NCBI GenBank assembly: GCA_046485285.1 | Contig: JAWOHE010000095.1 | Span: forward strand, 1 to 39,043 | DNA: 39,043 nucleotides | From: a bacterium | GTDB lineage: Bacteria; Hydrothermota; Tepidihabitantia; Tepidihabitantales; Tepidihabitantaceae | Direction of reading: 5' to 3' | Shown: piece by piece, positions 1 through 39,043 of the stretch | Layout of the letters: every line of letters starts with the position of its first letter | Numbering within the stretch: the stretch's first letter is position 1 | Translations under genes and position numbers: made by a program | The notes under the pieces: generated by a model | What the model saw: the letters and a program-made list of their open reading frames with translations, nothing else | What the model was told of the DNA's origin: nothing | The model's database searches: none

Positions 1-1385
1 CGGCTGTCGGCTAACAGCTCACGGCCGACAAACAACACGCCGCGGGCGATGGTCGGGCCGGGGCGCGCCTGCCCGGCGTCGGCTACGTCTTCATTCACGC
101 CGAGGACTGGGTTCAGGCTGACTACGGTGAAGTCGAGGCCGGTGCCGAGACCTCCGCTGTAGCCCGCTGCGTAGACTCTGCCGTCCGCTCCATAGGCTAC
201 GGAATAGGCCGCATCATTAAAACTGCCCGGTCCGTCATAACGGTAGGTCCAGTTCGTATCCCCAGCAGTTCTCAAGCTGATCACGGTAAGATCGCCGTAA
301 GTGCCGTCGCCTATGCTGTACCCCCCGGCATAGATATTGCAGTCCTCACCACAAACTATGGAATGGGCAAAGTCCCCACCTATCCTCGTTGGACTGTACC
401 AATACACCCAATTGGTGTCACCAGAGGACATGAGGCTGATCACGGTAAAACCACGCCGTTCTGCGACACTATCATAAGTCGTTCCTGCGGCGTAGACATT
501 GCCGTCCGCACCATAGGCGATTGACGTGGCGTGGTCCTCTCTACCCCCCGGAGCATCATACAGGTAAACCCAGTTAGTGCTGCCGGCGGCTGTCAGGCTG
601 GCTACGACAAAGACACCCACAAGGGGCCAACTGTATCCAACTCCGGCAGCGTAGACGTTACCATCTCCGTAAACGAGGGAAGTGGCGGAGGACTGACCGA
701 GATACACCTCTCTTACCCAGTTAGTATCGCCAGCAGTCGTCAAGCTGACCACGCAAAACCATGACAAGGCCGGGAAGTAGTAGCCGATGCTGCCGGCGGC
801 ATAGATGTTACCATCATCACCAAAGACCAGAGGAAGAGCACTGCCTCGAAAACCCTCCCTAACATAACGGTATGTCCAGTTTGTATCACCTGTTTGCGTC
901 AGGCTGATTACGCCGAAGCAGCCGCCGCAGCTTCCTGCAGCATAGATGTTGCCGTCAGCGCCGTAGACCAAGGAGTTGGCCTCAGTGCTGGAGGTGCACC
1001 GGTATACCCAGTTGGTGCCGCCTGCCGGCGACAAGCTAATCACGGTGAAATCACTACCACTGGTTCCCGCAACGTAGATATTGCCGTCTGCGCCGTAGGC
1101 TATGGAATTGGCCCTGTCAATAGTAGTCGGTACATCATGCCGGTACACCCAGTTTGTGTCGCCAGCAGAAGTCAAGCTAACCACGGTAATGGCCTGATTC
1201 ACCCCCTCGCCGCAGACATATCCTGCGGCGTAAATGTTGCCGTCTGCGCCATAGTGAATGGAGGTGGCTACGTCGGAGGAACCCCCTGGCCCTGCGAGTC
1301 GGTATACCCAGTTCTCAGTCTGCGCTTGGAGCACTATGGGCAGGAGCACACCCAGTGCCATTCGCCATGCTCTGTGCGTCCTCAT
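1..1385 (-). CDS. Secreted beta-propeller repeat protein (SBBP-like, 8 repeats) with start of CTD; 3' end runs off the window
   Basis: Hand translation: AGGAGG RBS, then MRTHRAWRMALGVLLPIVLQAQTENWVYR. Eight repeats of type S(I/L)xYGxDGN(I/V)YAAG...FTV(I/V)SL..GDTNW. Ends ..GVNE..PTIARGVLF like neighbouring CTDs. Missing from the ORF track because its stop lies outside the window. Confidence 0.85.
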   Translation of the reverse strand, partial: MRTHRAWRMALGVLLPIVLQAQTENWVYRLAGPGGSSDVATSIHYGADGNIYAAGYVCGEGVNQAITVVSLTSAGDTNWVYRHDVPTTIDRANSIAYGADGNIYVAGTSGSDFTVISLSPAGGTNWVYRCTSSTEANSLVYGADGNIYAAGSCGGCFGVISLTQTGDTNWTYRYVREGFRGSALPLVFGDDGNIYAAGSIGYYFPALSWFCVVSLTTAGDTNWVREVYLGQSSATSLVYGDGNVYAAGVGYSWPLVGVFVVASLTAAGSTNWVYLYDAPGGREDHATSIAYGADGNVYAAGTTYDSVAERRGFTVISLMSSGDTNWVYWYSPTRIGGDFAHSIVCGEDCNIYAGGYSIGDGTYGDLTVISLRTAGDTNWTYRYDGPGSFNDAAYSVAYGADGRVYAAGYSGGLGTGLDFTVVSLNPVLGVNEDVADAGQARPGPTIARGVLFVGRELLADS

Positions 1386-1394
1386 TTCATCCTC

Positions 1395-2762
1395 CTATCT
1401 TGTCACGACGACCTTGCGGACAACTAACGGCTTACCGCTCACGGCTGACGGCTCGGAACGCAAGAAGTAGACGCCGGGGGCAAGCACCCGCACGTCATTC
1501 GGGCCGGGTTGAAGGTCCAAGACCTTCCGGCCGGAGATGTCGAGCATCTCGGCCCCGTATGCTGTATGCTGTCTGCTGTCTACTTGCAGTTGCAGCACGC
1601 CGCGCACGACTGACTGGGGCCGCCTGTAACTGGCGGCCTGCGACTCAGGACTCTCCTTCATCGCCGTCATGCTGTCGCGGATGACCGAGACCGTGCCATC
1701 GCTGTAGTTGGCGACATAGACCCGGTTCTGAACCGGATTGTGGCAGAGCGCCACCGGCTCGTCGCCGACGCCGATGGTACGCAGTACCTGGTTGCTCGCT
1801 CCATCAATCACGGTCACGTCGTCGCTTCCCAGGTTCGCGCAGTAGACCTTGTTGTTTGTCGGATTGTAGCAGAGGGCACGGGGTTCGCCTCCTGCGGCCA
1901 CGGTGGCGATGACCGTGTCCGCCGCACCGTCAGCTACGGTCACATCATCGCTACCGGAGTTCGCACAGTAGACCTTGTCATCGAGCGGGTCGAAGCAGAG
2001 GGCGGAAGGGCCCCTGCCTGCGGCTATGGTTGTGATGACAGAGTCTGTCGCACCGCCAATCACCGCCACGCTGTCGCCTTCGAAGATCGCGCAGTAGACC
2101 TTGTTGTTGACGTGGCTGTAACAGAGAGCTTGTTGAGAGAAGATCCGCAGGGCAACTGTGGCGCTGATCGTGTCTCCCAGACCGTCGATGACGGAAACGA
2201 CGTCGTCGTGTCCGCAGTAGACCTTGTTGTTCTGCGGGTTGTAGCAGAGGGTACCGGGAGCCCATCCTCCCACGTACGCAATGACCGTGTCCGCCGCCCC
2301 GTCGACTACCCACACACGGCAGCAGAACTTGTTGGAGCAGCAGGTAGTGTTGTCGAGGTGGTAGCCGGAGCAATAGACCTTGTTGTTGACGTGGTTGTAG
2401 CAGAGGGTCAACGCCTCGACCAGGGCCCCGCGAACGGTGGCGATGACCGTGTCCGCCGCCCCGTCGATCACTGTCACGCCCCCGCCCCCGGAGTTCGCGC
2501 AGTAGACCTTGTTGTTTGTCGGGTTGTAGCACAGGGCAGCGGGCCAGCGTCCGGTGGCTACGGTGGCGATGACCTGGTTGGTGGCGCCGTCAATCACGGT
2601 CACGTTGTCGCCGGCCGAGTTCGCGCAGTAGACCTTGTTCTCGCGCGAGTTGTAGCAGAGGGCCTGCGGGCCGCTGTCGACTTCGATAGTCGTCTCCAGC
2701 CACTGGGCGGAGACGGCTGATAGCAGGCAGCCGAGAACCAAGAGCACAGAACCGATTCTCAT
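1395..2762 (-). CDS. YncE/YVTN-type beta-propeller protein with signal peptide and CTD
   Basis: Repeated LCYNPxNNKVYCAN...VTVIDG; signal peptide ending VSA-QW; C-terminus LDISGRKV..PGVYFLR..KVVVTR. Confidence 0.9.
   Translation of the reverse strand: MRIGSVLLVLGCLLSAVSAQWLETTIEVDSGPQALCYNSRENKVYCANSAGDNVTVIDGATNQVIATVATGRWPAALCYNPTNNKVYCANSGGGGVTVIDGAADTVIATVRGALVEALTLCYNHVNNKVYCSGYHLDNTTCCSNKFCCRVWVVDGAADTVIAYVGGWAPGTLCYNPQNNKVYCGHDDVVSVIDGLGDTISATVALRIFSQQALCYSHVNNKVYCAIFEGDSVAVIGGATDSVITTIAAGRGPSALCFDPLDDKVYCANSGSDDVTVADGAADTVIATVAAGGEPRALCYNPTNNKVYCANLGSDDVTVIDGASNQVLRTIGVGDEPVALCHNPVQNRVYVANYSDGTVSVIRDSMTAMKESPESQAASYRRPQSVVRGVLQLQVDSRQHTAYGAEMLDISGRKVLDLQPGPNDVRVLAPGVYFLRSEPSAVSGKPLVVRKVVVTR
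1424..1451. repeat. Degenerate heptamer tract (CTNACGG x4) in CTD coding sequence
   Basis: ctaacgg cttaccg ctcacgg ctgacgg. Confidence 0.65.
1556..1583. repeat. Degenerate heptamer tract (TGTMTGC x4) in CTD coding sequence
   Basis: cgtatgc tgtatgc tgtctgc tgtctac, encoding VDSRQHTAY. Confidence 0.7.
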
Positions 2763-2771
2763 CTCATCCTC

Positions 2772-4595
2772 CTATTCTGTCAGAATGACCTTGCGGACGG
2801 CTGACGGCTCCGGGCCGACAGCCCGGACGAAGTAGACCCCGGGCGCGAGGCTGCGGATGTCGTTATCGCCCGGCGCGAGCTCCCTCACCTTCCGGCCGGT
2901 GGCGTCGAGCAGCAGGCTTTGCCCCCTCACCTCCTGCCCCTCTCCCGGTGGGAGAGGGAAGGGCGAGGGCCGCAGGTACAGCACTCCGCGCACGATGGTC
3001 GGCAGGCGGTTCATCGTTAGTCGCTCATCGTTCATCGTTTCTTCGACTCCTCCGCCCGCGTTGATCCAGGCAATCGCGGCCTCAACGACCGCGTCCCGTC
3101 CGCTCGCCACGGCTTCACGCGTGTGCCAGACGTGCGTGTCCGGCTCGAACGCGACGTGCGTCAGGTAGCCGGCAGAGTCGTTGTACCGCCGCAGATCCTG
3201 GTAGGCATATTGGCCCTGGAAGTCGTTGTGGATGTAGAGGCCTGAGAAACTGCCTATGAACGCGCCGTTGGACGGCTTGCCGAACGTCCGTGTGTTCCCG
3301 GGGCGCAACGCGGTCCGGTACGTCTCCCAGTCGCCCATGCTCCAGGCGCCCGGGCCGGTCAGCACGGCAAGGGGTTTGGAGTAACCCGTGTCCTTGCCGG
3401 CGATCGCGTAGTGTGACGGAGGCCTGACGACCCGCATCGCGAAGCGGTTGACCGGGTCGCTGCGCGTGCAGCCGCAGAACGAGAACGTCGATTCGCTGCT
3501 GAAGAGAAAACGGTATCCACCCATCGCCGTGTTGTCGTCCTGTCCACCTTCGTTGTAGCGGTAGTCGATGATGATACCCTTGAGCGAGGAGGCGGCGGTC
3601 AGGGTGCTGCAGGCCTGACGGAACTTGCTGGCCGCGTCCCACACCCAGGCCCAGACATAGATGTAGCCGATGCTGTCCCCTTCGATGATGCCCCAGCTTA
3701 CCGCTATCATCGAGTCGAGATCGGGCTTGGGGACTCCCGGGACGTCGAGTTCCTCGCAGCAGACGAGGTCAGGCTCGTAGCCGACCATCAGCGACGTTGG
3801 CAGATGCACCGTGTCACCGCTTGCGTACCTGACGATGTCGACGGTGTCGAACAGGTGCCAGTTCTGGCCGGCGCTGACGAGTAACGTGTGAGCCAGGGAC
3901 CGGTCCTCGGCCGCCCAACGGAAGCGCCGGCCTATCGGCAGTTGGGCTTCCAGCAACTCGCGGCAGCATTCGGTCCAGGGCCTGCGGTCGTACCCGAGAA
4001 TGACGTCGCCAGGGACGATGCCCAGCGGATGGTTGTCGTCCACTTCGTAGACCAGTAGCGAGCTGTCCTCAAGCGGAGTCAGACCGGCACCGAAATGGGT
4101 GTCCCAGCGCCAGCCTGCGATGACAAAGACCGGTACGCCGGGCAGCAACTCGGTCTGCTCGCACACGAGCCTGTCGTCCAGGTAGGTGTGCGGCTCCCGC
4201 AAGGCCATTGCCGATTGGCCCATCATCGCGGCGAACCTGCCCCGGCTCACAGTATCCTCGACCTCCGCGCGAAAGGCGGCATACAGCGAGTCCCACCGCG
4301 CCGGGTCGAGGTTGTTGAAACAGGCGTACAGCCGGTCCATCTTGAACTTGAACGAGTCCATTACCGCGAGCTTGGTCTCGGTCGGCAGCCCCTCGCCCCA
4401 GACCGAGTCAATGGCCCGTCGCCAATCGGCCTTCGAGTAGTGGCCCGGTCGCTTTCGCACATCCGGCCGGAAGACCGGTGGCGTCGGCCGCGTGGTGGGG
4501 TCGTCTGGCTGGCGCTGGAGCGACAGCGCACCCGGCGATGCTCCTGTCGGCACGCCAACTGCCAACAGGGTCAGCAGAAGACACAGTCTTCTCAT
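2772..4595 (-). CDS. S41 family peptidase (PDZ-like segment) with signal peptide and CTD
   Basis: IGYIYV, IIIDYRYNEGG, VLTGPGAWSMGD, FGKPSNG motifs; CTD at the end. Confidence 0.85.
   Translation of the reverse strand: MRRLCLLLTLLAVGVPTGASPGALSLQRQPDDPTTRPTPPVFRPDVRKRPGHYSKADWRRAIDSVWGEGLPTETKLAVMDSFKFKMDRLYACFNNLDPARWDSLYAAFRAEVEDTVSRGRFAAMMGQSAMALREPHTYLDDRLVCEQTELLPGVPVFVIAGWRWDTHFGAGLTPLEDSSLLVYEVDDNHPLGIVPGDVILGYDRRPWTECCRELLEAQLPIGRRFRWAAEDRSLAHTLLVSAGQNWHLFDTVDIVRYASGDTVHLPTSLMVGYEPDLVCCEELDVPGVPKPDLDSMIAVSWGIIEGDSIGYIYVWAWVWDAASKFRQACSTLTAASSLKGIIIDYRYNEGGQDDNTAMGGYRFLFSSESTFSFCGCTRSDPVNRFAMRVVRPPSHYAIAGKDTGYSKPLAVLTGPGAWSMGDWETYRTALRPGNTRTFGKPSNGAFIGSFSGLYIHNDFQGQYAYQDLRRYNDSAGYLTHVAFEPDTHVWHTREAVASGRDAVVEAAIAWINAGGGVEETMNDERLTMNRLPTIVRGVLYLRPSPFPLPPGEGQEVRGQSLLLDATGRKVRELAPGDNDIRSLAPGVYFVRAVGPEPSAVRKVILTE
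2924..2969. repeat. REP-like hairpin (CCCTCTCCC-ggt-GGGAGAGGG core) in frame in the S41 CTD
   Basis: Perfect 9-bp stem 2938-2946/2950-2958 plus imperfect outer arms; encodes PSPFPLPPGEGQEVRG. Confidence 0.75.
3012..3039. repeat. Heptamer tract (CATCGTT) in the S41 pre-CTD linker
   Basis: catcgtt agtcgct catcgtt catcgtt. Confidence 0.7.
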
Positions 4596-4604
4596 CTCAA
4601 CCTC

Positions 4605-6023
4605 CTATCTCGTCACGACAACCTTGGTGACGGAGAACGCTGAATGCTCTCTGAGGAAGTAAACCCCCGGCGCGAGGTGCCGGATTTCGTTCGGGCCGGG
4701 CACCAGGTTCGCGACCTTGCGGCCCGAGATGTCGAGCAGGATGGCCCCAACAGGGCCCCGCAGCTCCAGGACCCCGCGTACTAGGGAGCGGTTCCGGGCT
4801 CCCGGAACCGGCACCCGAGCTTCGGACACGGCCGACGCCGACCGGGCGAACTCGTGCAGCGCGGGCACGACAATCCCGAATACCGCGGGGGCCACCTGCG
4901 GCCAGTGGCCGTTGGTGAAGACGATGAAGCCGGTGCGAAGCTCACGGCAGAAGCCCATACACGTGCAAATCCCGTCCCACGTCCCGCTGTGGTACCAGAT
5001 CGAGTCACCCACGAGTTCGGTGGTGAACCAGCAGAACCCGGCATTCGGCGGGAACTGCGTAGACGTCATCAGGGCCACGGTGGCGCTGTCCAGGATGCGG
5101 ACCGTGTCGTAGGCACCGTCCCGGACGTACGCGGTGAGGAACCGAACGAAGTCACGCGTGCAGGACTTGAGGCCCGCGGCCGGGAGTATCGTGCTGCTGT
5201 TGTACCCGATTCTCACATACTCGTCGCCGTTCCAGTAGTACTGGCACGCCACGCTCATCGTGTCGAGGTCGCCGAAGAACCACGTGGTCCGGTCCATTCC
5301 CAAGGGCCGGAAGATGTGGTCGCGGGTGTACAGCGGGAAGCTGTCCGCCATCGCCTCGACCACGTACCCCAGGAGCGTGATGCCGATGTTCGAGTACTCA
5401 AACTGCCGTCCCGGGGCCCAGCGGCAGAAGTTGAAGATGCTGTCGTAGTAGGCACCACCGGGCACGAGGTAGCCCTCCGTGAAGTCGCGCAGCGAAACGG
5501 TGGGGTCGCCCGGCAGGTGCAGGCTGTCGATGACCCGGAAGTTGTCGCGGAGCGCTGAAGTGTGCGTCATCAGCATTCGGTAGTCGATGAGGGAGTCCGG
5601 GAAGTGCGAATGCCGGACCATGAACGGCAGCGACTCGTTGACGTCGCCGCCCAGGTCGAAGTACCCGTCCTCCCAGAGTTGCATCGCGGCCGTGCCGGCA
5701 ACCGTCTTGGAAATCGATGCGAGTGAGAAACAGCTCGTGTCCGTGACCGGGATGCTCTCCTCGAGGACGGCGTAGCCGTAGCAGCGGCTCCAGAGGATGC
5801 TGTCGCCGCGGATGGCCATCGTCGCCATGCCCGGTATCGGGTAGCTGTCCATGGCGAACGTCAGCACCGAGTCGAGCCACGCGGTATCGCCCGGGGGACA
5901 CGCCGGGCCGGGCGCACGCCAACCGGGGGCGAATGACTCGTTCGGTACCCCCGGGCCGTACCGGATCTCCCCGCCTTCTGCGGCGGCGAGAACAGCCGCC
6001 AGGACGATGACCAGGGTTCTCAT
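4605..6023 (-). CDS. Serine hydrolase (beta-lactamase class C/AmpC-like fold) with signal peptide and CTD
   Basis: SxxK (ASISKT), LMTHTS, YSN and HSG motifs. Confidence 0.9.
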   Translation of the reverse strand: MRTLVIVLAAVLAAAEGGEIRYGPGVPNESFAPGWRAPGPACPPGDTAWLDSVLTFAMDSYPIPGMATMAIRGDSILWSRCYGYAVLEESIPVTDTSCFSLASISKTVAGTAAMQLWEDGYFDLGGDVNESLPFMVRHSHFPDSLIDYRMLMTHTSALRDNFRVIDSLHLPGDPTVSLRDFTEGYLVPGGAYYDSIFNFCRWAPGRQFEYSNIGITLLGYVVEAMADSFPLYTRDHIFRPLGMDRTTWFFGDLDTMSVACQYYWNGDEYVRIGYNSSTILPAAGLKSCTRDFVRFLTAYVRDGAYDTVRILDSATVALMTSTQFPPNAGFCWFTTELVGDSIWYHSGTWDGICTCMGFCRELRTGFIVFTNGHWPQVAPAVFGIVVPALHEFARSASAVSEARVPVPGARNRSLVRGVLELRGPVGAILLDISGRKVANLVPGPNEIRHLAPGVYFLREHSAFSVTKVVVTR

Positions 6024-6031
6024 GGCCCCTC

Positions 6032-7423
6032 CTATCTCGCCACGACCACTTTGGTCGAGGTTCTTAGTTCCTGGTTCGTGGTTCTTGGTTCGGCCACGAA
6101 GTACACCCCCGGGCTCAGGTGCCGGACGTCGTTGGTGCCGGGGCGCAGGTCCGCGACCTTACGGCCCGAGATGTCGAGCAGGACGGCATCCGCAGAACCT
6201 CGCAGGTTGATGGTCCCGCTCACGAACGTCCCGCACAGCAGCCACTCCACGGTCGGGCCGGGCGCCTCGGCGATGCCGTCCGGTATGAACCCGTGGAGTG
6301 CAGGAATGACCACGTCGTGGAACAGGGTCTGGCAGTACTCGCGGTTGGCGAGCGCGACGACCGCGCCGTTGAGCCGCCGGGAGAGCGCGAAGTAGGTGGT
6401 GATGCCCTTCTCGTCGCCGTCGTGGCACCAGACCGTGTCCCCGTTGACGCAGTCCTGGTACCAGGCGAATCCGAAGTGCGTCTGCCACGGGACCGACCAA
6501 ACGTGCGGCGTCTGCATCATCGCCACGGTCGCGCTGTCCAGCAGCCGCGCTGTGTCGTGCCGGCCCCAGGCCAGCCACGCCTTCAGGTACTCGGCGAGGT
6601 CGCGCGTGCAGGACTTGAGGAACGCGGCCGGGTAGAAGGAGCCGCCCACGTAGCCGAGACGTCGCCAGCGCGAGGTGTCCCACCCGTACTGGCAGGCGCA
6701 GGTCATCGTGTCGAGGTCGGCGAAGAACCAAGTGGTCCGATCCATCCCTAGCGGGCGGAAGATGTGCTCGCGGGTGTAGACCGGGAAGCTGTCGGCCATC
6801 GCCTCGACGGTGAAGCCGAGCAGGGCGTAGGCGATGTTGCAGTACAGCCAGCCGCCCCCGGGCGGCCGGAACTGGTAGAAGTTGCGCGCGCTGTCGTACC
6901 CGGGCCGGCCGGGCGTGAGGTAGTTCTCCAGGAGCGTGCGCAGCGACGAGTCCGGGTCGCCCTGGCTGTAGTAGTTGTTGAGGGTTATCCAGTTGTCCTG
7001 GATTGCCGAGGTGTGGGTCATCAGCATCCGCGGCGTGATGGCCGAGTCCGGGTACCGCGAGTGGTGGACGGCGAACGGCAGGGACTCGTTGACGTCGCCG
7101 TCGAGGTCGAAGTAGCCGTCCTCCCAGAGCTGCATCGCCGCCGTCGCCGTGAAGGTCTTGGACAGCGAGGCGAGCGTGAAGCAGGTGGTGTCGGTCACCG
7201 GCGTGCTGTCCTCGAGAATCGCGTAGCCGTAACACCGGTCCCAGATGACCTCGCCGTCCTTGATGACGAGGGTAGCCAGCCCGGGCATTGGGGCGTTGCG
7301 CCGGGCGGCGTCGAGCAGCGAGTCGAGCCAGACGCTGTCGCCGGGCGGGCAGTGGATGGCCCGTGAGCCGCCCCCGACGGCGCAGGTCAAAGCGAGCGCC
7401 AGGAAGAAGATATGTTTGCCCAT
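6032..7423 (-). CDS. Serine hydrolase (beta-lactamase-like), paralog of 4605..6023, with CTD
   Basis: ASLSKT, LMTHTS, YCN, HDG; long shared blocks with neighbour (AAMQLWEDGYFDL, HIFRPLGMDRTTWFF). Confidence 0.9.
   Translation of the reverse strand: MGKHIFFLALALTCAVGGGSRAIHCPPGDSVWLDSLLDAARRNAPMPGLATLVIKDGEVIWDRCYGYAILEDSTPVTDTTCFTLASLSKTFTATAAMQLWEDGYFDLDGDVNESLPFAVHHSRYPDSAITPRMLMTHTSAIQDNWITLNNYYSQGDPDSSLRTLLENYLTPGRPGYDSARNFYQFRPPGGGWLYCNIAYALLGFTVEAMADSFPVYTREHIFRPLGMDRTTWFFADLDTMTCACQYGWDTSRWRRLGYVGGSFYPAAFLKSCTRDLAEYLKAWLAWGRHDTARLLDSATVAMMQTPHVWSVPWQTHFGFAWYQDCVNGDTVWCHDGDEKGITTYFALSRRLNGAVVALANREYCQTLFHDVVIPALHGFIPDGIAEAPGPTVEWLLCGTFVSGTINLRGSADAVLLDISGRKVADLRPGTNDVRHLSPGVYFVAEPRTTNQELRTSTKVVVAR
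6057..6091. repeat. Heptamer tract (NNGGTTC x5) in CTD coding sequence
   Basis: gaggttc ttagttc ctggttc gtggttc ttggttc, encoding EPRTTNQELRT. Confidence 0.75.
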
Positions 7424-7431
7424 TGTCCCTC

Positions 7432-9843
7432 CTATCTCGTCACGACTACCTTCTGACAGCTTTCGGCCGACGGCCCACGCCCGACAGCCCGGACGAAGTA
7501 GACCCCGGGCGCGAGGCTGCGGATGTCGTTATCGCCCGGCGCGAGCTCCATCACCCGCCGGCCGGTGTGGTCGAAGAGTGAAGAGTGAATGGTGAAGGGT
7601 GAAACAGGAAGCCGTAGACTCCCGCGCACGATTGTCGGCTCGGCGCGCGGCACTCGACGTCCATTCGGCGTTTCCTCGACCCCCCCCGGCATGCTATCGC
7701 GGATGACCGAGACCGTACCGCTGCCCGAGTTGGCAACATACACGCGGTTCTGCACAGGGCTACTGCAGAACGCTGCCGGCCGCCTGCCCACGCTGATCGT
7801 GCAGACAATGGAGTCGGTCGCGCCATCAATCACCGTTATCGTCGAGTCGTGGTCCGGGTCCGAGCCCGGGTGCGCGCAGTACAGCTTGTTGGCCACAGGG
7901 TCGTGATAGAAGGAACCGGCCGGGCGGGAAAGGGGCACAGTCGCCATCACGGAATCCCCCCAGACATCTATCACCACGATACCGCCACCCCCCGCGCAGT
8001 AGACCTTGTTGTCGACAGGATTGTAGCAGACCACCGAACCATAGACGGGTATGCGTGCAATCACCGTGTCCGCGTCGCCGTCAATCACCGAAACGCACGA
8101 GTCGCGAATGCCGGGGCTGAGATACAGCTTGTTTGACCAATCGCTGTAGCACATCCCGCCGCCGCCGCCCCCAAGCCTCGCGATGACCGTGTCGGTCGAG
8201 CAGTCGATGACGGTGAGCACGCTGGTCCAGTAGAAGCTGCCCCGGCAGTACATCTTGTCCATCCACGAGTTGTAGCACAGTTCCCGCGGCCAGAAGGCCC
8301 CCACCTGAGCCACGACAGTGTCGGCTGCGCCATCGATGACCGTCACGCTGCTCGAGTACTCGTTCGCGCTGTAGACCTTGTTCCTCAGCGGGTTGTAGCA
8401 GAGCGCCCCGGCCCCGGGCCCGACGCCAACGGTTGTGATGACCGTGTCGGCAACACCGTCGATGACCGTGATGAAGCTGTCCGGCGCGGACGTGCAGTAC
8501 AACTTGTTGTTCAGTGAGTTGAAGCAAAGGGCAGTCGGGCAATGTCCGAGGCGCACCTTGCCCGCTATCGAGTTGCTGGCCGCGTCAATGACGGTGACGT
8601 CGCGATTCCAGGAGTAGGCGCAGTACACCTTGTCGCCGGCAGGGTTGTAGCAGAGCACCTGGGGCTCGGAGCCGACGCGTACGTACTCGACCATCTCGTT
8701 GGTCGCGCAGTCGACCACCGCGACCTCGCCGGTGAGGGGGCAGGCGCAGTATACTCTGTTGCCAGATGGGTCGTAGCAGATGGCGTTCGGTCTGTCGCCC
8801 ACGGTCACTGTGGCGATGACGGTGTTTGTCAGACCGTCGATCACCGAAACCGTGCTGTCGGGAAGGCTGTCGATTGCACCGTTGTTCGCGCAGTAGATGC
8901 GGTTATCCCGGGGATTGTAGCAGAGAGCCCCGGGTCCGTTGCCCACCGAGATGGTGGCGACGACCGAATCGGCCGCACCGTCGATGACCGCCACGTCGTT
9001 GCTGAGGGAGTTGGCGCAATACACTCTGTTGTCGGTCGGGTTGTAGCAGAGAGCCCGGGGGCCGATGCCGACCGGAACTGTCGCGACAACCTGGTCGGTT
9101 GCGCCGTCGATGATGGTCACGGTCGAATCCGCATTGTGTGGGTACGCCCCGCCGTTGGCGCAGTAGAGCTTGTTGTCCTCGGGATTGTAGCATAAGACTC
9201 CCGGCCAGCGACCGACCCAGACCGTCGCGACCGTCCTGTTCGACGAGCAGGCGATGACCGATATCGTACGGGTCCCCAGATGGGTGGAGTACACTTTGCG
9301 GTCATGGGAGTTGTAGCAGAGCGAGAGCGGCAAGGGATCAACACCCACGGCAGTCAGGACCGAATCGCCTGATCCATCGATGACGGTCACGGTGTTGCCG
9401 GGGTTGCCTCCGTGGCCGTAGTCGGCGCAATACACCTGGTTCCCGACCGGGTCGTAGCACAGGGAGTACGGTGGTCTCCGCACGGGGACGGTGGCCAGCA
9501 GGTGGTTGGTGGCACCGTCTACCACGACGACGCACGATTCGCGGTCCGTACCGTTACCCGGAATTGCGCAGTACACCTTGTTGTTCTGCGGATTGTAGCA
9601 GAACGCCGAGACCTCACCGCCGGTCGGGATGCGGGCGATCTTCTGGTTGGTGGAGCAGTCGATGGCTATCGCGTACTCCCCCTCCTCCCCGCCGACGTAG
9701 ACGGCGTTGTTGCCGGCGCGGAACAGCGCCTGTGGCCCGTTCAACCCGCACAGGGAGTCCGGTACGTAGATTGTCTTCTCCAGCCACTGGGCAGACGCCG
9801 CGCTCACCAGCACGGCGAGCATTACGAATACGGTCCTTCTCAT
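7432..9843 (-). CDS. Long YncE/YVTN repeat beta-propeller protein with signal peptide and CTD
   Basis: Many LCYNP..NKVYCA repeats. Start moved from 9888 to ATG 9843, which follows GGAAGGAGG and begins a signal peptide (MRRTVFVMLAVLVSAASA-QW). Confidence 0.9.
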   Translation of the reverse strand: MRRTVFVMLAVLVSAASAQWLEKTIYVPDSLCGLNGPQALFRAGNNAVYVGGEEGEYAIAIDCSTNQKIARIPTGGEVSAFCYNPQNNKVYCAIPGNGTDRESCVVVVDGATNHLLATVPVRRPPYSLCYDPVGNQVYCADYGHGGNPGNTVTVIDGSGDSVLTAVGVDPLPLSLCYNSHDRKVYSTHLGTRTISVIACSSNRTVATVWVGRWPGVLCYNPEDNKLYCANGGAYPHNADSTVTIIDGATDQVVATVPVGIGPRALCYNPTDNRVYCANSLSNDVAVIDGAADSVVATISVGNGPGALCYNPRDNRIYCANNGAIDSLPDSTVSVIDGLTNTVIATVTVGDRPNAICYDPSGNRVYCACPLTGEVAVVDCATNEMVEYVRVGSEPQVLCYNPAGDKVYCAYSWNRDVTVIDAASNSIAGKVRLGHCPTALCFNSLNNKLYCTSAPDSFITVIDGVADTVITTVGVGPGAGALCYNPLRNKVYSANEYSSSVTVIDGAADTVVAQVGAFWPRELCYNSWMDKMYCRGSFYWTSVLTVIDCSTDTVIARLGGGGGGMCYSDWSNKLYLSPGIRDSCVSVIDGDADTVIARIPVYGSVVCYNPVDNKVYCAGGGGIVVIDVWGDSVMATVPLSRPAGSFYHDPVANKLYCAHPGSDPDHDSTITVIDGATDSIVCTISVGRRPAAFCSSPVQNRVYVANSGSGTVSVIRDSMPGGVEETPNGRRVPRAEPTIVRGSLRLPVSPFTIHSSLFDHTGRRVMELAPGDNDIRSLAPGVYFVRAVGRGPSAESCQKVVVTR
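7570..7604. repeat. Heptamer tract (RGTGAAN x5) in CTD coding sequence
   Basis: gtcgaag agtgaag agtgaat ggtgaag ggtgaaa. Confidence 0.7.
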
Positions 9844-10004
9844 CTCAACCTCCTTCCGGCCGACGGTGAATAGTCCGGCGGCCGGCACCGTCTGCGGGAA
9901 CCGCCCGCGCTCAATCGCGGGGTTCCTGCTGTTACAGCTTGTCTGCTCGAGAGGGACTCACCCTGCAGGCTGCGCCCGGCCGGCCCCTTGCCGGCCGAAC
10001 AAGC

Positions 10005-10118
10005 CTAGCGGCTCAGAGAGAGCCTGCAGGGACGCTGATACCGGTAGTAGCTCTTGCGCATACAGACCCCTTTCGTATGCGGCGTCGGACGGACTGGCCT
10101 CGCGGACATCACGTTCAT
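10005..10118 (-). CDS. Putative 37-aa leader peptide (MNVMSARPVRPTPHTKGVCMRKSYYRYQRPCRLSLSR)
   Basis: Short ORF just downstream of the promoter at 10131-10159; AGGAG only 2 nt before ATG 10118 and AAAGGGG before in-frame ATG 10061. Confidence 0.3.
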   Translation of the reverse strand: MNVMSARPVRPTPHTKGVCMRKSYYRYQRPCRLSLSR

Positions 10119-10130
10119 AACTCCTGCCGA

Positions 10131-10159
10131 ATTATGCCAAGCCCACGACCCCTTGTCAA
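10131..10159 (-). promoter_or_regulatory. Sigma70-type promoter for the secreted-protein array
   Basis: TTGACA-17 nt-CATAAT on the minus strand. Confidence 0.75.
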
Positions 10160-10293
10160 GGGGGAATCGCCACCGTGTCCGTCAACCCCGGACGCCGCGG
10201 GTTTGGCTGTCAAACCTTCGTTCAGTCGGCGATGGTGAGTCTCCGGCGTTCCTTTGCGCCGCCTGCCTCGATGCCGAGGAAGCACGCCCCGGG

Positions 10294-10692
10294 CTACTTC
10301 CTGGCCCGGCCGGCGTGGAGCGCCTCGTTTTCCCTCACCCGTGCCCGGACCAGCTTCCTGACCAGTGTCGAAGGCAGCGGCTTGTCCGCCGGGAAGCGGA
10401 CGGTCCCTGCAGCCGTGTCGTAGCGCTTGAGCTCGACCCGGTGCGCCTTGATGACGGCCGGGCTCATCACGAAGAAGCTCAGATGGCTCCGGAAAGCCGC
10501 GAATGCGACCAGCGGTCCGAGGTGGTGGAACATCGGCATCCGCCAGCCGATTCGCTCCTCGGCCGCCGGCGCGGCCGACCTGATGTCGCGGCGCAGCTTC
10601 TCGAGCGCCGCTCGCGCCTCATCCGGCACTGCCGCAAGGTAATCATCCACCCCGGTCTCCGGGCGAAGCTGTTTGGCAATCATGCCCTTCAT
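10294..10692 (-). CDS. DUF1801 (YdhG-like) domain protein
   Basis: VDDYLA...LR..IRSAAP.AEE.I.W.MP.F...HLSF...GTVRFP.DKPLP..LV.KLV.ARV pattern. Confidence 0.85.
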   Translation of the reverse strand: MKGMIAKQLRPETGVDDYLAAVPDEARAALEKLRRDIRSAAPAAEERIGWRMPMFHHLGPLVAFAAFRSHLSFFVMSPAVIKAHRVELKRYDTAAGTVRFPADKPLPSTLVRKLVRARVRENEALHAGRARK

Positions 10693-10701
10693 TGCGCAAT
10701 C

Positions 10702-13700
10702 CTACCGAGTGACGACCACCCTCTGATGGCTCGCGGCCGATGGCTCACGGCCGACGGCCCGGACGAAGTAGATGCCGGGCGACAGGTGCCGCACGTCGTT
10801 TGCGCCGGGCTTCAGGTCCAGCACCTTTCGGCCGGAGATGTCGAGCAGGACGCACTTGGGACACGATCCGGAATCCCCGCGCGGATTTCGGTCATGTCCC
10901 GCGTGCAGCACCCCGCGCGCGATGGTGACCCGGGCCATCGGCAGGACCCGGCTCGCCGGCCTCGCCGCGACCCCGGACCGCCCGGCCGCGCGGGCAGGCG
11001 CGGCCGGGTCGTAACGCCAGAACTCGCGCGACCCGCCGCCCTTGAGCAGGAACACCCGTCCGCCGAGACAGGCAAGACCGGCCCCGCCCCCGACCTTGCG
11101 CCGGCCGGGCCCGGGCGGCACGTCCTCGAGCCGGGTCCAGGAGTCGCCGGCCAGGTCGTAGCGCCAGAACTCGCCGCCCCGGCCCCGGAGCGCGAACACC
11201 GAGCCCGCGCCGTCCGCGGCCAGCGCCGCACCCCGGCCGGCCCGGCGATGCCGGCCGCCGGGACCGGTTGCCGGCAGGTCCGCCCGCGCCGCCCAACTGT
11301 CGCGACGCGGGAAGTACTCGTAGAACTCACTCGTGCCGCCCTTGAGCAGGAAGACCCGCTCGCCGTGCGCGACGAGGTCGGTGCCGTACCGACAGCCGCG
11401 GCCAGCCGGCCCTTCGGGTACCGGCCGGCGCGCGTGCCAGCGTCCGAGCCGGAGGTAGCAGGCAAGGAACCCGTGCCGGCCGCTGCCGGTCGCCAGGAAG
11501 ACCCGCTCGGTGTCGGCGCGGACGTGCGCGAGGCCGGTCCCGTGACGGATTGCCCTGAGCCCCTCGGGCAGGGAAACCAGCGTATCCCATTCGCTACCGG
11601 ACGGCCGGTAGCAGAGGAACGCTCTCCGGCCCCGCCCCGGGAACAGGAACACCGAGTCGCCCCCGCTCCACGCGGCAGCCGCTCCCTCGCGCACCCGGCG
11701 GCCGTCCGGCCCGGCCGGGACCGGGGCAAGCGCACACCACGAGTCGCCGTCGGCCGCGTAGCGGTACCAGTCGCCGGTGCCGGTGCCGCGCAGGCCGTGG
11801 AGGCCTGCGCTCGTTGCGACGAGCCGCCCCCCACGCCGGACCGGCCGCGCGCCGGGCAAGTCTGCCAGCCGCTGCCACTGCGGAGCCTCGACGCTGTCCA
11901 CGCTGACCACCGCCCGGCAGGTGTCGTTCGCCGGACGGGCGTCTCCGGGCAGGCGGACCGTCGCGACAAGGTCGTACCGGCCCGCCACCGCGCGCCAGGC
12001 CGTGAAACTGATCGCTGTGTCCGCGCCGGCCCGGAGTACGAGGTCGACCGAGTCCTCGTAGCCCGCGCCGGCGATCAGGAGACGACACACCGCGCGGCCC
12101 TCTTCGTTGCCGGGGTTTGAGATGCGGACGACCGGCACGACCAGACCGGGCAGGACCGTACCCCGGGGCGCGACGATGTCCTCGGCCGCCGCGTCAATCA
12201 CCCGCACGAAAGTCTCTCCCCGCAGAGGTCCGACCGCCGTGCTCTCGGGCAGGACGAGGAGCGAGCAGGCGAGCGCCTGCGCGCCGCGGGTCAGCGCCAG
12301 CCAGGACCTGAACTCGAGCGTCGTGTCCCGGCCGCCGGGCAGGCCCGGCACGTCAACCGAGTCCGCATAGCCGTCCGCGATGCCGAACCATGCCCGGAAG
12401 CCGGCCGGCTCGTCCCCCAGGTTCCGCACCCGGATTCGGGGGACGACCGCGGCGCCGGAGTCGACCCGCTCCCCGGGCGCGATGATCGCGCCGAGGGCCA
12501 GGTTGCCGACGTGAAGCGTGAACTCCGCTCCGGCCGAGTCATTGTGCGGCCGCATGTCGCCGGGGAGCCGCACCCGGCAGGCCGCACGGTACGCGCCCGG
12601 CAGACCGAGCCAGTCCCGGAACCGGACCGAGGCACTCGAATGCGGGTCGAGCCGCACCGAGGCGCTGTCCTCGAACGCGATTCGGCCGAGGCTGTCGGTG
12701 ATGACGAACCGGGCCGCGAAGCTCGCCGTGTCGTTGCCCCGGTTGCCCACGACCGCGACCGGCCGCACGGTGTCGCGCGCCGGAAGCGCGCCGCGTGGAC
12801 TCGTGATGCTTTCCGCCGCGGCGTCGAGCACGCGGACGAATGCCGAACACCGGCCAACCGGGCCGGACACATTGCCCGGCTGGAGAAACAGCGAACAGGC
12901 AACCGGCGCCCATCCCGGCCTGCCCGGAGTCCACTCCCGGAACCCGACCGCCAGCGACTCGCCCGCGGGAACTGAATGCTCCTCAGTCGTGTCCATATAC
13001 GCCGGCGGGTCAATCCACATCCGCGCCGTGAACCGGGCCAGTGCCGAGCCGGAGTTGCGCACCACGACGCGGGGTTGGACCACCACCGCGGAATCAACTA
13101 CTCCTCTCGGGTAGACCTCGGTGATTTCCAGGTTGATGGACTGCAGCACGACGAACGTATCGCACAGAACGTTGTTCTCAACCCGCATGTCCCCGGCGCA
13201 GGCGGTCGAGCAGGCCACGAACCCGGACGTCTCGACCGGAACGGTCCGGAACGCCAGCGTCGTGCACGCGCCCGGGCCGAGCGAGAGAGACCCCGAATCG
13301 CGGTGCAGGAGCGTGCCCGCGAGGGAGCGTACCTCAAGCCAGAGTCGACCGCTGTCCGACATGTTCCCCCGGTTGCCGATGCTGACCCGCACCTCAAGCG
13401 TCTCGCCCCGTTCCACCGATGCCGGCACGTCAAGCGACTCCGCCGCGAAGTCCCGGACCCGGACGAAGAACGCCCTGCTGAGGACGTTGTTTGCCGGGCA
13501 GGTATCGCCCGGGACCGGCGGAATGGAGCACTTGACGGCCTGACCACCGCGCGCGTGCGCCGGCCACGCCGCGAACTCGAGCGTGTCGCCCCCTCCCGGC
13601 GCGAGCCCGCTCACCATCAGCGACTCGGCGTACCCGCCGGGAAGCGTCAGCCAGACCGCGAAGCTCTCCGGCTCCTCGCCCTGGTTCGCGACAACCACGG

Positions 13701-14916
13701 CCGGGGAGAAGGACTGCGCCGAATCGACCGTGTCCGGCGCGAACAGCTCGGTCACCGCGACATCGCGAACCACACCGGTGCGGCGCACGAACACGTCCGG
13801 GTTGTTCGCGCTGTGCCGGTGGTCGGTCCAGGCAACCGCGAGTTCATCGGCCGGACCGACGCACAGGGTCGGGTTCTCACACTTCCGGTCCACACCGGCC
13901 AGACGCGTCGGCGTGGTCCAGTTCCGGCCGGAATCGTCGGCGCTGATGTAGTAGAGATGGGTATCGGCTCTGGCCGTATCCGCGGCATAGACCGCGTGGA
14001 CATTGCCTGCGCCATCGGCGAGGACAGAACCGGGGTGGACATTCCGACCCGGTCTGGGCAATTGGACCGTATCGAGCCAGGCAGCACCACGCCGCTGGCG
14101 GTAGACCAGCGCCCAACGGCTCTGGACCAGTTCCCGCCGCCAGACGCAATGCACTACACTTGCCGGTGAGACGTACAGGCTCGGTCCGTTGCAGCTGAAG
14201 CCGTACGCTAGGGTGTCAACGCGTCCCCAGCCAGTGTCATCGCGAGGGCGAAAGGCAACAAGCGGCTCGGTGCCGCCATAGGACTGCCAGGCGACCGCCA
14301 GTTGCCCCTGTTCACTCGCCGCGACGGACGGCCTGCGACTGAAGTGACCCTCAGTCCGACTGCTCAGGCACTCGGCAGTTCCCCAGCCCCCGGCTCCCCG
14401 CGCAACGACGAGAACATCCACAGCGTTGGTGAGCGTCCTCTCACTCCAAGCCACGAAGACTGAATCTCCCTGTCCGATGGCGATGGACGGGGTTTCTGCA
14501 AGAGTAGTGATGCGGGCAGTTTCAACCGTGTCCCAGGTATCGGCCGGCGGGCGGCGCCGGTAGCGAACCGCGGTGCTGTCAAGGGTGGTCCACGCGACGT
14601 GGATGCCGCCGCTGTTGTCCGCCACGACGCAGGCGTGCTGCGCGCCGGAGGTGTCGGTCGAGATGACCGTGTCCACGCTCCACTCGCCGGTCAGCCCATC
14701 CCGCCGCGAGTACCAGACCTGGCTCAGCCCGGCCGAGATGCCGTGCCAGACGACGTGGAGATTGCCGGCCGGGTCGAACGTCGCGGCCCGGGCGTTGTTG
14801 GGACAGGTACGGTCAGGCTGGTCGGTCCGCTCGGTCAGCCGTTCTTCCGGAAGCCAGCCGGCCTGCGCGAACCCGAGCAGGACCAATAGGACGCAGGCTG
14901 ACGAGGCGCGTCGCAT
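10702..14916 (-). CDS. Large secreted protein: BNR-like propeller + ~5 CARDB-like Ig repeats + Kelch-like propeller + CTD
   Basis: Signal peptide; GNLHVVW/GIHVAW repeats; repeated D(V/A)A....I..P....P.V.V.N.G units; FLLKGG..EFW.Y Kelch-like units; CTD. Confidence 0.8.
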   Translation of the reverse strand: MRRASSACVLLVLLGFAQAGWLPEERLTERTDQPDRTCPNNARAATFDPAGNLHVVWHGISAGLSQVWYSRRDGLTGEWSVDTVISTDTSGAQHACVVADNSGGIHVAWTTLDSTAVRYRRRPPADTWDTVETARITTLAETPSIAIGQGDSVFVAWSERTLTNAVDVLVVARGAGGWGTAECLSSRTEGHFSRRPSVAASEQGQLAVAWQSYGGTEPLVAFRPRDDTGWGRVDTLAYGFSCNGPSLYVSPASVVHCVWRRELVQSRWALVYRQRRGAAWLDTVQLPRPGRNVHPGSVLADGAGNVHAVYAADTARADTHLYYISADDSGRNWTTPTRLAGVDRKCENPTLCVGPADELAVAWTDHRHSANNPDVFVRRTGVVRDVAVTELFAPDTVDSAQSFSPAVVVANQGEEPESFAVWLTLPGGYAESLMVSGLAPGGGDTLEFAAWPAHARGGQAVKCSIPPVPGDTCPANNVLSRAFFVRVRDFAAESLDVPASVERGETLEVRVSIGNRGNMSDSGRLWLEVRSLAGTLLHRDSGSLSLGPGACTTLAFRTVPVETSGFVACSTACAGDMRVENNVLCDTFVVLQSINLEITEVYPRGVVDSAVVVQPRVVVRNSGSALARFTARMWIDPPAYMDTTEEHSVPAGESLAVGFREWTPGRPGWAPVACSLFLQPGNVSGPVGRCSAFVRVLDAAAESITSPRGALPARDTVRPVAVVGNRGNDTASFAARFVITDSLGRIAFEDSASVRLDPHSSASVRFRDWLGLPGAYRAACRVRLPGDMRPHNDSAGAEFTLHVGNLALGAIIAPGERVDSGAAVVPRIRVRNLGDEPAGFRAWFGIADGYADSVDVPGLPGGRDTTLEFRSWLALTRGAQALACSLLVLPESTAVGPLRGETFVRVIDAAAEDIVAPRGTVLPGLVVPVVRISNPGNEEGRAVCRLLIAGAGYEDSVDLVLRAGADTAISFTAWRAVAGRYDLVATVRLPGDARPANDTCRAVVSVDSVEAPQWQRLADLPGARPVRRGGRLVATSAGLHGLRGTGTGDWYRYAADGDSWCALAPVPAGPDGRRVREGAAAAWSGGDSVFLFPGRGRRAFLCYRPSGSEWDTLVSLPEGLRAIRHGTGLAHVRADTERVFLATGSGRHGFLACYLRLGRWHARRPVPEGPAGRGCRYGTDLVAHGERVFLLKGGTSEFYEYFPRRDSWAARADLPATGPGGRHRRAGRGAALAADGAGSVFALRGRGGEFWRYDLAGDSWTRLEDVPPGPGRRKVGGGAGLACLGGRVFLLKGGGSREFWRYDPAAPARAAGRSGVAARPASRVLPMARVTIARGVLHAGHDRNPRGDSGSCPKCVLLDISGRKVLDLKPGANDVRHLSPGIYFVRAVGREPSAASHQRVVVTR
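10858..10900. repeat. Imperfect palindrome (GGGACA...TGTCCC, REP-like) in frame in the CTD
   Basis: gggaca-cgat-ccggaatcc ccgcgc ggatttcgg-tca-tgtccc, encoding GHDRNPRGDSGSCP. Confidence 0.7.
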
Positions 14917-28489: not shown

Positions 28490-28545
28490 CACCACGCTCC
28501 TGCGGTTTGTCTGACCTCGGGCGCGACCCATTCGCGCCACCTGCA

Positions 28546-28573
28546 ATTCTAGAACCCGACGCGACCTAGTCAA
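28546..28573 (-). promoter_or_regulatory. Putative promoter for M28-PHP genes
   Basis: TTGACT-16-TAGAAT. Confidence 0.55.
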
Positions 28574-38541: not shown

Positions 38542-38860
38542 TCAACAATTATCCGGCTATTTTCGGCAAGTCAAGTCCGCCCGGCCCGGCACCCGGACCG
38601 GCTCGACCTAACGCCAATACCATCAACAACTTAACTGAGCCGGGCCTCAGCCGGGTCGCGCCACCCCGGTCATCAATGACGGCTCGTGGCAGCCGCCGAC
38701 CTGCCTCCCGCCCTGCTCCTGTCACGTCCCGGCCCTGGTTCGGACCGCTGCCGGTCACCCGGTCGCGCTCATCGGCGCACGACGTCTTCCGACGCCGGCC
38801 GCTCAGTATGCTCCTGTGCCCGCTTCTTCGTGCCGTGCGTCCGGACTCCTCCCCGCCCCG

Positions 38861-38893
38861 GAAAAGAGCCCGGGCAGGGTCGCCCCTGCCCGG
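38861..38893 (-). terminator. Intrinsic terminator
   Basis: Minus strand ccgggcaggg-gcga-ccctgcccgg followed by gctcttttc, 20 nt after the stop at 38914. Confidence 0.75.
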
Positions 38894-38913
38894 ACCGAAT
38901 CACGAGCCGGCCG

Positions 38914-39043
38914 TTACTCCGCGACCAGCACCTTCCGCACCGACGAACCGGCCTCCGTCACCAACCGGCAGAAATACACCCCCTCGGCCAGCCGCCGGCC
39001 GAAGTCGTCGTCCGCCAACCAGCTCGCCGTGCCCGAAACCGGC
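38914..39043 (-). CDS. 3' end of a FlgD-type CTD-bearing protein (partial)
   Basis: Hand translation ...SWLADDDFGRRLAEGVYFCRLVTEAGSSVRKVLVAE*. Confidence 0.8.
   Translation of the reverse strand, partial: PVSGTASWLADDDFGRRLAEGVYFCRLVTEAGSSVRKVLVAE

Follow-up and report, generated by a model that had tools for sequence, protein, structure and literature searches.

A probable translationally coupled operon of type IX-like secretion cargos with a recurrent stop/Shine-Dalgarno junction in a Tepidihabitantaceae bacterium

Six co-oriented genes with a shared C-terminal domain

The window, that is, the whole stretch of DNA analysed here, is the entire 39,043-base contig C53 of a bacterium assigned to the family Tepidihabitantaceae, whose genome assembly (2.34 Mb in 102 contigs, 88% complete) has a guanine-plus-cytosine (GC) content of 69.1%. 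Positions 3-9843 of its minus strand are filled by six co-oriented open reading frames (ORFs) lying head to tail, an array of unrelated cargo genes that share one type of C-terminal domain (CTD) and one type of junction. With moderate confidence, we read these six genes as a single polycistronic, translationally coupled operon of type IX-like secretion cargos. The features of the array and the gene ahead of it are listed below (nt, nucleotides; aa, amino acids).

10131..10159, minus strand: sigma-70-like promoter candidate, TTGACA-17 nt-CATAAT with an upstream TG, some 290 nt upstream of the array's first ATG
9844..9854, minus strand: head ribosome-binding site AGGAGGTTGAG, preceding the ATG at 9843, without an upstream stop codon
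7432..9843, minus strand: gene 1, long YncE/YVTN beta-propeller, 803 aa, signal-peptide-like start; CTD at about 7432-7689; TIGR02276 E 8.8e-82, TIGR04183 E 0.02
7424..7431, minus strand: junction 1, TAG (7432-7434), then GAGGGACA, then ATG; 8 nt
6032..7423, minus strand: gene 2, beta-lactamase-fold serine hydrolase, 463 aa; PF00144 E 6e-53; CTD at about 6032-6289, TIGR04183 E 0.00081
6024..6031, minus strand: junction 2, TAG-GAGGGGCC-ATG; 8 nt
4605..6023, minus strand: gene 3 (Bla1), beta-lactamase-fold serine hydrolase, 472 aa; PF00144 E 4.8e-44; CTD at about 4605-4862
4596..4604, minus strand: junction 3, TAG-GAGGTTGAG-ATG; 9 nt
2772..4595, minus strand: gene 4, S41-family peptidase-like, 607 aa; PF03572 E 9.9e-8 (32.2 bits, cut-off 24); mosaic CTD at about 2772-3029
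2763..2771, minus strand: junction 4, GAA-TAG-GAGGATGAG-ATG; 9 nt
1395..2762, minus strand: gene 5, short YncE/YVTN beta-propeller, 455 aa; TIGR02276 E 2.1e-54; CTD at about 1395-1652
1386..1394, minus strand: junction 5, AGA-TAG-GAGGATGAA-ATG; 9 nt
3..1385, minus strand: gene 6, delta-60/SBBP-like repeat propeller, C-terminally truncated at the contig end, just where the CTD begins (...TIARGVLFV...); TIGR02608 E 4.4e-14, below cut-off
10702..14916, minus strand: 1404-aa CARDB/Kelch-like protein with the same CTD type, upstream of the promoter and outside the operon

A preliminary description of the locus, made from the letters alone, had reported six genes of one orientation that join unrelated cargos to the same CTD type, and comparison with Pfam and NCBIfam supported five of its six cargo labels, the sixth gene giving only sub-threshold matches to delta-60/SBBP-type propellers. 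The YNCE/YVTN repeats of the two propellers were also found in Pfam (E 2e-14 and 2.8e-13). Genes 3 and 2 proved to be paralogues, with 54% identity across the cargo (gene 3 against 6284-7360), and for these two serine hydrolases every named class C or PBP family in Pfam and NCBIfam remained far under its cut-off. The N-termini were judged signal-peptide-like by eye (e.g., MRRTVFVMLAVLVSAASA-QW).

The junctions are more uniform than the genes that they join. All five internal junctions contain TAG-GAGG, four as AGA-TAG-GAGG and one as GAA-TAG-GAGG, with stop-to-ATG gaps of 9, 9, 9, 8, and 8 nt and GGAGG placed 4-5 nt ahead of each ATG. The features by which coupled operons are recognised, namely, a common strand, gaps well below 20 nt, and a Shine-Dalgarno sequence for each start, were thus found throughout the array. 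The 2.34-Mb genome contains four copies of a 16-nt motif, AGGAGGWTGARATGAG, all of them at array starts, and the start region of the S41 gene (4588-4606) is identical over 19 nt to the array head (9836-9854). The stop codons embedded in ribosome-binding sites, the 8-9 nt spacing, the motif shared by four starts, and the 19-nt identity had all been noted in the preliminary description, and each was confirmed.

For family scoring and for building a profile, six CTDs were used, including that of the 1404-aa gene and excluding that of gene 6, which is truncated. TIGR04183, the type A sorting domain of type IX secretion systems (T9SS), was the sole family matched by all six (E 0.0008-0.05; 13.6-19.3 bits). 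PF18962 matched five of them with 13.1-15.5 bits against a cut-off of 27, a value that one CTD in a related array of genome G054 clears (30.2 bits). These matches suggest that the shared CTD is a weak T9SS type A sorting domain. The genome also holds six genes of the PorV family scoring above cut-off, and a PorU-like gene adjoins a PorV gene on contig C96. When the CTD profile was run against the 2.3-Mb genome, 64-65 C-terminal copies were recovered, and about 21 of 68 CTD reading frames abut another CTD frame on the same strand. Eight contig ends of the genome lie in CTD genes; repeated CTDs break assemblies.

Other genes with related ends were observed beyond the array. Further probable T9SS-type cargos lie at 16052-18037 (plus strand) and 26810-28573 (minus strand), in the half of the window that had been labelled housekeeping: an FG-GAP repeat protein matches the array CTD profile (E 7e-11), and an M28 peptidase ends in a FlgD_ig domain. 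On contigs C7, C39, C55, C84, C93, and C95, CTD genes of an LVLAR, LVLTR, or LVLVK subtype end in TAA (a similar gene on C89 ends in TAG). Nearly the same 30 nt (GGCTTCGGCAGACGGCCCGGAGCG...) follow the genes of this subtype, and CTD nucleotide identity continues past the stop; these 30 nt may represent either a conserved 3' element or a repeat.

The array could in principle have arisen by tandem duplication and divergence alone, with whole units duplicated and the likeness of the junctions inherited. Two paralogue pairs, Bla1/Bla2 (54%) and the long and short YncE genes, speak for such a history. However, the S41 and SBBP-like genes lack a paralogue among the six, and four unrelated folds are represented among the cargos. 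Moreover, the array CTDs share only 53-74% nucleotide identity (29-46 identical residues per 58-70 aligned), the junction motif being sharper, and the closest relatives of a CTD are often found on unrelated genes elsewhere in the genome. We consider duplication as the sole origin improbable.

The promoter candidate at 10159-10131 matches the consensus at 11 of 12 hexamer positions and was the best of three sites detected by a consensus scan of positions 1-11000, the other two scoring 9/12; shuffled sequence yielded a mean of 1.5 promoter-like sites. No convincing terminator was detected at any array gene junction, and no Rfam family matched the 5' leader (9700-10400). At the left edge of the window, no other contig of the genome overlaps or continues the sequence. 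At the opposite edge, the last 191 nt (38853-39043) recur with 100% identity and in the same orientation at the end of contig C43 (7311-7501), a repeat present at two contig ends. Between promoter and upstream neighbour, a DUF1801 gene (10294-10692) starts at +9 after the TAG of the 1404-aa CTD gene. It is preceded by TAGGATTGCGCA, without GAGG, and its product shows no obvious signal peptide by eye.

The stop-overlapping Shine-Dalgarno junction in this genome and in relatives

Stops and starts were surveyed across the genome using rough gene calls, among which TGA closes 940 genes, TAG 684, and TAA 106. TAGGAGG occurs 67 times in the genome, and 24 of these copies supply the stop of a called gene. 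Where the next start lies at +7 to +12, TAGGAGG was used at 8 of 12 junctions following CTD genes versus 12 of 93 ordinary junctions (Fisher p 1.4e-4), and the same comparison without this contig gave 4 of 7 versus 12 of 93 (Fisher p 0.012). Given a background of 12/93, and with the junctions taken as independent, TAGGAGG at all five array junctions would be expected by chance with a p of ~4e-5. CTD genes outside this contig also end in TAG more often than genes at large (39/57 versus 684/1730, p 2e-5), and junction spacing in the genome shows a local peak of 37 at +9. TAGGAGG coupling is therefore enriched at CTD genes yet not exclusive to them: only nine of the 24 TAGGAGG stops follow CTD genes, whereas 15 follow non-CTD genes. 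The genome-wide scan that the preliminary description had put forward as a check thus bears out the association of the motif with CTD genes and leaves it shared with ordinary ones. Readthrough fusion, suggested by the fact that a +9 spacing keeps neighbours in frame, was rejected, as two junctions are at +8 and TAG is a common stop (684/1730).

The motif reaches well beyond this genome. TAGGAGG-N5-ATG was present in all 41 searched genomes of the order, with 4-24 occurrences per genome versus 0-9 for a reversed control, and also in families where this CTD type is rare or was not found. Spacer variants of the array's type (NTGAR) occur at five non-array starts among 155 GGAGG-N5-ATG sites. Furthermore, in this genome and in relatives, GAGG is absent after the TAG of CTD genes that lack a close downstream gene. 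Since GAGG appears only where a gene follows, its behaviour is that of a working ribosome-binding site, not of a passive connector. This qualifies the earlier proposal that the CTD end and the junction together form a reusable connector, which draws support from the standardised junction, the patchy cargo content, and the breakpoints at CTDs and junctions described below, but which has to accommodate a GAGG that acts as a functional ribosome-binding site.

These observations also favour a simpler alternative, a plain coupled operon in which the junction reflects selection for an optimal initiation region behind a conserved CTD end and recombination plays no particular role. The order-wide distribution of TAGGAGG-N5-ATG, the 12 ordinary junctions of this spacing that use TAGGAGG here, the restriction of GAGG to sites where a gene follows, the NTGAR-type spacers at non-array starts, and a gene order partly kept across genera are all in its favour. 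Against it, the 16-nt motif is confined to this one array, and the CTD mosaics and rearrangements presented in the next section would have to be explained separately. We regard this alternative as unlikely.

The junction was further counted in the loci of relatives. Among 41 distinct CTD gene ends, 34 use TAG and 21 have the next start at +7 to +12, in 19 cases at exactly +9. Nine of these 21 junctions read TAGGAGG, two TAAGGAGG, three TAGGAG, three TAGGA, and four otherwise; one further junction, outside the 21 and listed at +5 via TTG, was read by hand as TAGGAGG with an ATG at +9. Three junctions of genome G044 read TAGGAGGATGAGATGAA, nearly the motif of the window, and the TAGGAGG junction recurs in the CTD arrays of at least six other genera.

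Mosaic CTDs, patchy cargos, and the origin of the array

Within the genome, CTDs are mosaic. In the S41 CTD, the 5' part matches the CTD of an unrelated gene on contig C86 (87% identity over 179 nt), while the 3' part matches that of gene 1 (91% over 111 nt). Throughout the genome, CTDs attached to unrelated cargos form many pairs with 85-94% nucleotide identity along 150-230 nt. No labelled CTD was matched best by a CTD from the same type of cargo in another genome, an observation that is suggestive only, as the domains span ~75 aa and are 50-60% identical. Both the mosaics and the high-identity CTD tracts on unrelated cargos argue against the plain coupled operon.

A scan of a genome collection with the S41 cargo returned a near-identical 3.2-kb contig from another metagenome bin (L046, 97% identical to the window), together with nine distant loci of other phyla at 37-43% identity; the corresponding metagenome scan gave two distant loci only (39-44% identity), and a search for sequencing runs containing positions 1-10000 listed none. 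L046 aligns with positions 3058-6189 of the window. From 5699 to 3300, a block spanning the Bla1 CTD and the Bla1-S41 junction, identity is 97-100% and mostly 100%. It then drops to 92-94%, 74-77%, and 57% toward the upstream CTD, the junction, and the Bla1 signal peptide, and to 95-90% toward the S41 CTD at the other side; the residues ahead of the upstream CTD in L046 are unlike Bla2. L046 hence diverges near CTDs at both edges of the block while the internal Bla1 CTD is 100% identical, a pattern that speaks against the plain coupled operon. The bin containing L046 (G057) is titled Cryobacterium sp., and no other contig of G057 matches the window, so that L046 is probably mis-binned.

Rearrangements with similar limits were observed in relatives. 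In genome G043, of another genus, contig C66 carries an S41 gene (74-76% identity) followed by a YncE-like gene, and contig C25 ends with a Bla-like gene, the same junction, and the first 72 nt of the S41 gene of C66. Two different upstream genes of G043 thus share a CTD 3' end, a junction, and the first 72 nt of S41. In genus g10, a single locus was compared across four genomes (G013, G054, G021, and G052). It comprises M28, DUF3659, a 470-aa gene, and Bla in G013, and G054 lacks the 470-aa gene. In G021 and G052, a 98-aa gene (L039:2533-2829 and L040:3101-3397) replaces the M28-DUF3659-470-aa segment ahead of Bla. In its predicted product, the M28 signal peptide and ~36 N-terminal residues are joined to the CTD found ahead of Bla, and the coupling sequence TAGGAGGTCCGAATG before the Bla-like gene is left intact; to judge from its sequence, this conserved gene amounts to a cargo-less export unit. 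A hybrid CTD was sought at the one-gene indel distinguishing G013 from G054, but the CTDs there are too diverged to align. The two alternative upstream genes behind one junction in G043 and the cargo-less combination of signal peptide and CTD add to the evidence against the plain coupled operon.

Cargo content is patchy across the family. When the whole S41 protein was used as query, relatives aligned only via the CTD; such matches came from 24/24 genomes of the family and from few in the sister families. In contrast, the S41 cargo query detected 5 of 40 family genomes and the Bla cargo query 7 of 40, and neither cargo was found in the four genomes of the same genus (0/4 each). In G004, a member of this genus, the orthologue of the 1404-aa gene is present and followed by unrelated genes, the array being absent there. 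In genome G018, a YncE-long-like gene precedes a Bla-like one (61% identity), and if contigs C25 and C66 join, the order Bla-like, S41, YncE-like probably recurs in G043. At other loci, the neighbours of these cargos include LVIVD propellers, SBBP proteins, M28 peptidases, DUF3659 repeat proteins, and a beta-helix protein. In G054, the gene at L031:2285-4966, which lies some 3 kb upstream of the related S41 array, encodes a sigma-54 activator containing TPR repeats. The variability among relatives that the preliminary description anticipated is thus borne out for cargo content, whereas order is partly kept. Conserved order and coupling equally common in ordinary operons, which it had held to speak against its proposal, were likewise found only in part.

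As read from these alignments, breakpoints fall in or beside CTDs, junctions, and signal-peptide starts. They are graded and spread over all three, which fits homologous rather than site-specific recombination and bears directly on the strongest form of the earlier proposal, a dedicated cassette system in which the CTD end and junction serve as a connector where a recombinase inserts, excises, and reorders cargos, as in an integron without attC sites. Several observations are compatible with such a system: the +9 TAGGAGG junction is standardised across genera, cargo content is patchy, one-gene and multi-gene indels leave the junction intact, an identical connector stands behind two different genes in G043, and the missing sequence beyond the left contig edge leaves room for a recombinase gene. 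However, no recombinase, integrase, or transposase family was detected among the 25 proteins of the window or among 18 proteins flanking related arrays. In addition, apart from the ribosome-binding site the 8-9 nt junction is free of repeats and hairpins, the breakpoints are graded, and ordinary operons use the motif as well. With no room for attC and no recombinase in these sets, the integron analogy does not hold, and we judge a dedicated cassette system to be very improbable.

As the preliminary description had estimated by eye, the array is less GC-rich than its surroundings: the six genes have 57.6-67.0% GC versus 69.1% for the genome, placing them between the 0.2nd and the 26.6th percentile of 1772 rough calls, whereas CTD genes overall match the genome (68.9% versus 69.1%). 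Of the arginine codons in the array, 10.4% are AGA, versus 1.7% genome-wide, and in other genera of the family the GC content of the loci is 62-67%. With G043, the S41 cargo shares 74-76% identity, versus 69% for the fructose-bisphosphate aldolase (FBA) and 60% for the NAD synthase (NadE), two housekeeping proteins of the window; within the genus, FBA is 86% and NadE 67-70% identical. The closer relationship of S41 than of FBA and NadE to G043, along with its absence from four genomes of the same genus, points to lateral acquisition. The array was probably acquired from a lower-GC member of the same family, a direction of transfer suggested by these sequence comparisons.

Proposed mechanism, precedents, and significance

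We favour, at the same moderate confidence as stated for the operon, a coupled operon of T9SS cargos that was probably laterally acquired and that was remodelled by ordinary homologous recombination, without cassette machinery. According to this proposal, one promoter ~290 nt upstream would drive all six genes as a single transcript. The Shine-Dalgarno sequence of each downstream cistron would begin in the last G of the preceding TAG (TAG-GAGG, 4-5 nt, ATG), such that a ribosome terminating on one gene would cover or unmask the next start and restart 8-9 nt downstream, a form of coupling corresponding to the ~+10-nt class of gene pairs. The products would probably leave via the Sec pathway, and the CTD would then probably be recognised by the PorV/PorU-type outer-membrane apparatus encoded in the genome. 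The uniformity of the junctions would combine the order-wide TAGGAGG-N5-ATG habit, a conserved CTD end (...VVVxR, TAG), and local homogenisation within arrays, and array content would shift by homologous recombination and gene conversion, the exchanges ending within or next to the repeated CTDs, the junctions, and the starts of the signal peptides.

A more far-reaching version, which we put forward tentatively and consider doubtful, would treat the 3' half of the CTD, TAGGAGG-N5-ATG, and the first codons of the next signal peptide as a portable homology arm, in which recombination would duplicate or delete whole units of signal peptide, cargo, and CTD, exchange them between arrays, and carry them from one strain or genus of the family to another. 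If true, this would constitute a recombinase-free cassette system for the T9SS secretome, restoring register and coupling at each exchange.

Several points weigh against the operon and remodelling that we favour. Co-transcription, actual coupling, secretion, and transfer direction are all deduced from sequence. All six scored CTDs lie under the curated cut-offs (23 bits for TIGR04183 and 27 for PF18962), the PorU-like gene reaches 297.9 bits against a cut-off of 420, and the SprA/Sov model was silent in this genome but also in all 14 control genomes, which makes it uninformative. The junction counts rely on rough GC3-based ORF choices (1772 genes) and not on a validated gene finder, and junction 5 of the window is absent from the +7 to +12 counts because the truncated gene 6 was not called. 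The loci of relatives were reached via homologues of the array or of its CTD, which makes the census sample biased. Absence from the same-genus genomes is weak evidence, as these are 83-96% complete, fragmented into 200-440 contigs, and distant (NadE 67-70%). L046 is one short contig in an unrelated bin, and its identities lack a baseline between source organisms. Evidence at the codon level for conversion between the S41 and YncE-long CTDs is modest, with 35 of 46 identical codons versus 14/29 to 26/36 in other pairs. Finally, the GC deficit lies mostly at codon positions 1 and 2 (GC1 0.58-0.63 versus 0.66-0.81 in the rest of the contig, with GC3 slightly lower), so that amino-acid composition accounts for part of it, the composition argument for transfer is only partial, and a claim of foreign origin from GC alone is weakened.

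The closest precedent that we found is provided by the KLIKK protease arrays of Tannerella forsythia, whose T9SS cargos belong to different catalytic classes, have their ends in common, and are missing in a close relative (PMC4404884). Their authors propose that genes already present or gained laterally were joined to shared signal-peptide and C-terminal modules (PMC4404884). Like these arrays, the one described here combines T9SS cargos from different enzyme classes with a shared CTD and is missing from close relatives, with the S41 and Bla cargos in none of four same-genus genomes and the G004 flank devoid of the array. The two also differ: the CTDs and N-terminal parts of the KLIKK proteins are nearly identical, whereas here the CTDs share 53-74% nucleotide identity and ~16-19 nt are shared around the starts. 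Likewise, a 50-bp A/T-rich tract lies ahead of every KLIKK gene, and these genes presumably start without a Shine-Dalgarno sequence, whereas the gaps here are 8-9 nt with a consensus Shine-Dalgarno sequence overlapping the stop.

With regard to coupling, the relevant studies describe a minor class of gene pairs spaced at ~+10 nt in E. coli (PMC10666635) and a need for very short intergenic distances in translational coupling (PMC10666635; PMC12548453). The array resembles the pairs treated there in having same-strand genes a few nt apart, with the Shine-Dalgarno sequence at the end of the upstream gene. These studies tie tight spacing to subunits of heteromeric complexes, whereas the genes here encode unrelated secreted proteins (PMC10666635; PMC12548453). 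In our data, the stop-in-Shine-Dalgarno arrangement at +9 is a near-exclusive rule for one gene class across the whole family. Integron arrays consist of a head promoter followed by co-oriented, unrelated, promoter-less genes that vary between relatives. The present array shares with them a putative head promoter, the row of co-oriented unrelated genes, and content variable among relatives, but differs in that no integrase was found among the window and flanking proteins, the gaps are without attC, the breakpoints are graded and homology-like, and each unit has its own export signals. For Porphyromonas gingivalis, homologous recombination among repeated modules of CTD-bearing T9SS surface proteins is described as generating diversity (PMC5266723). 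There, adhesin domains are shuffled within a few genes of one species, whereas here the region of CTD, junction, and signal peptide between whole operon genes would be involved (PMC5266723).

In the library searched, no paper joins 'WOR-3', a tentative label for this host, with 'type IX secretion' or 'T9SS'. The individual parts of the proposal, that is, T9SS cargos, translational coupling, gene conversion, and KLIKK-type arrays, are already known, and the gain is incremental. In terms of function, the array would show an uncultured lineage packing unrelated surface or secreted enzymes into co-expressed sets. In terms of evolution, it would show how such sets are rebuilt without mobile-element machinery. 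The mosaics also warn that a cargo and its CTD may have separate histories, and the rule of CTD, TAG-GAGG, 5 nt, and ATG aids in placing gene starts and in recognising cargo operons in metagenome bins of the family.

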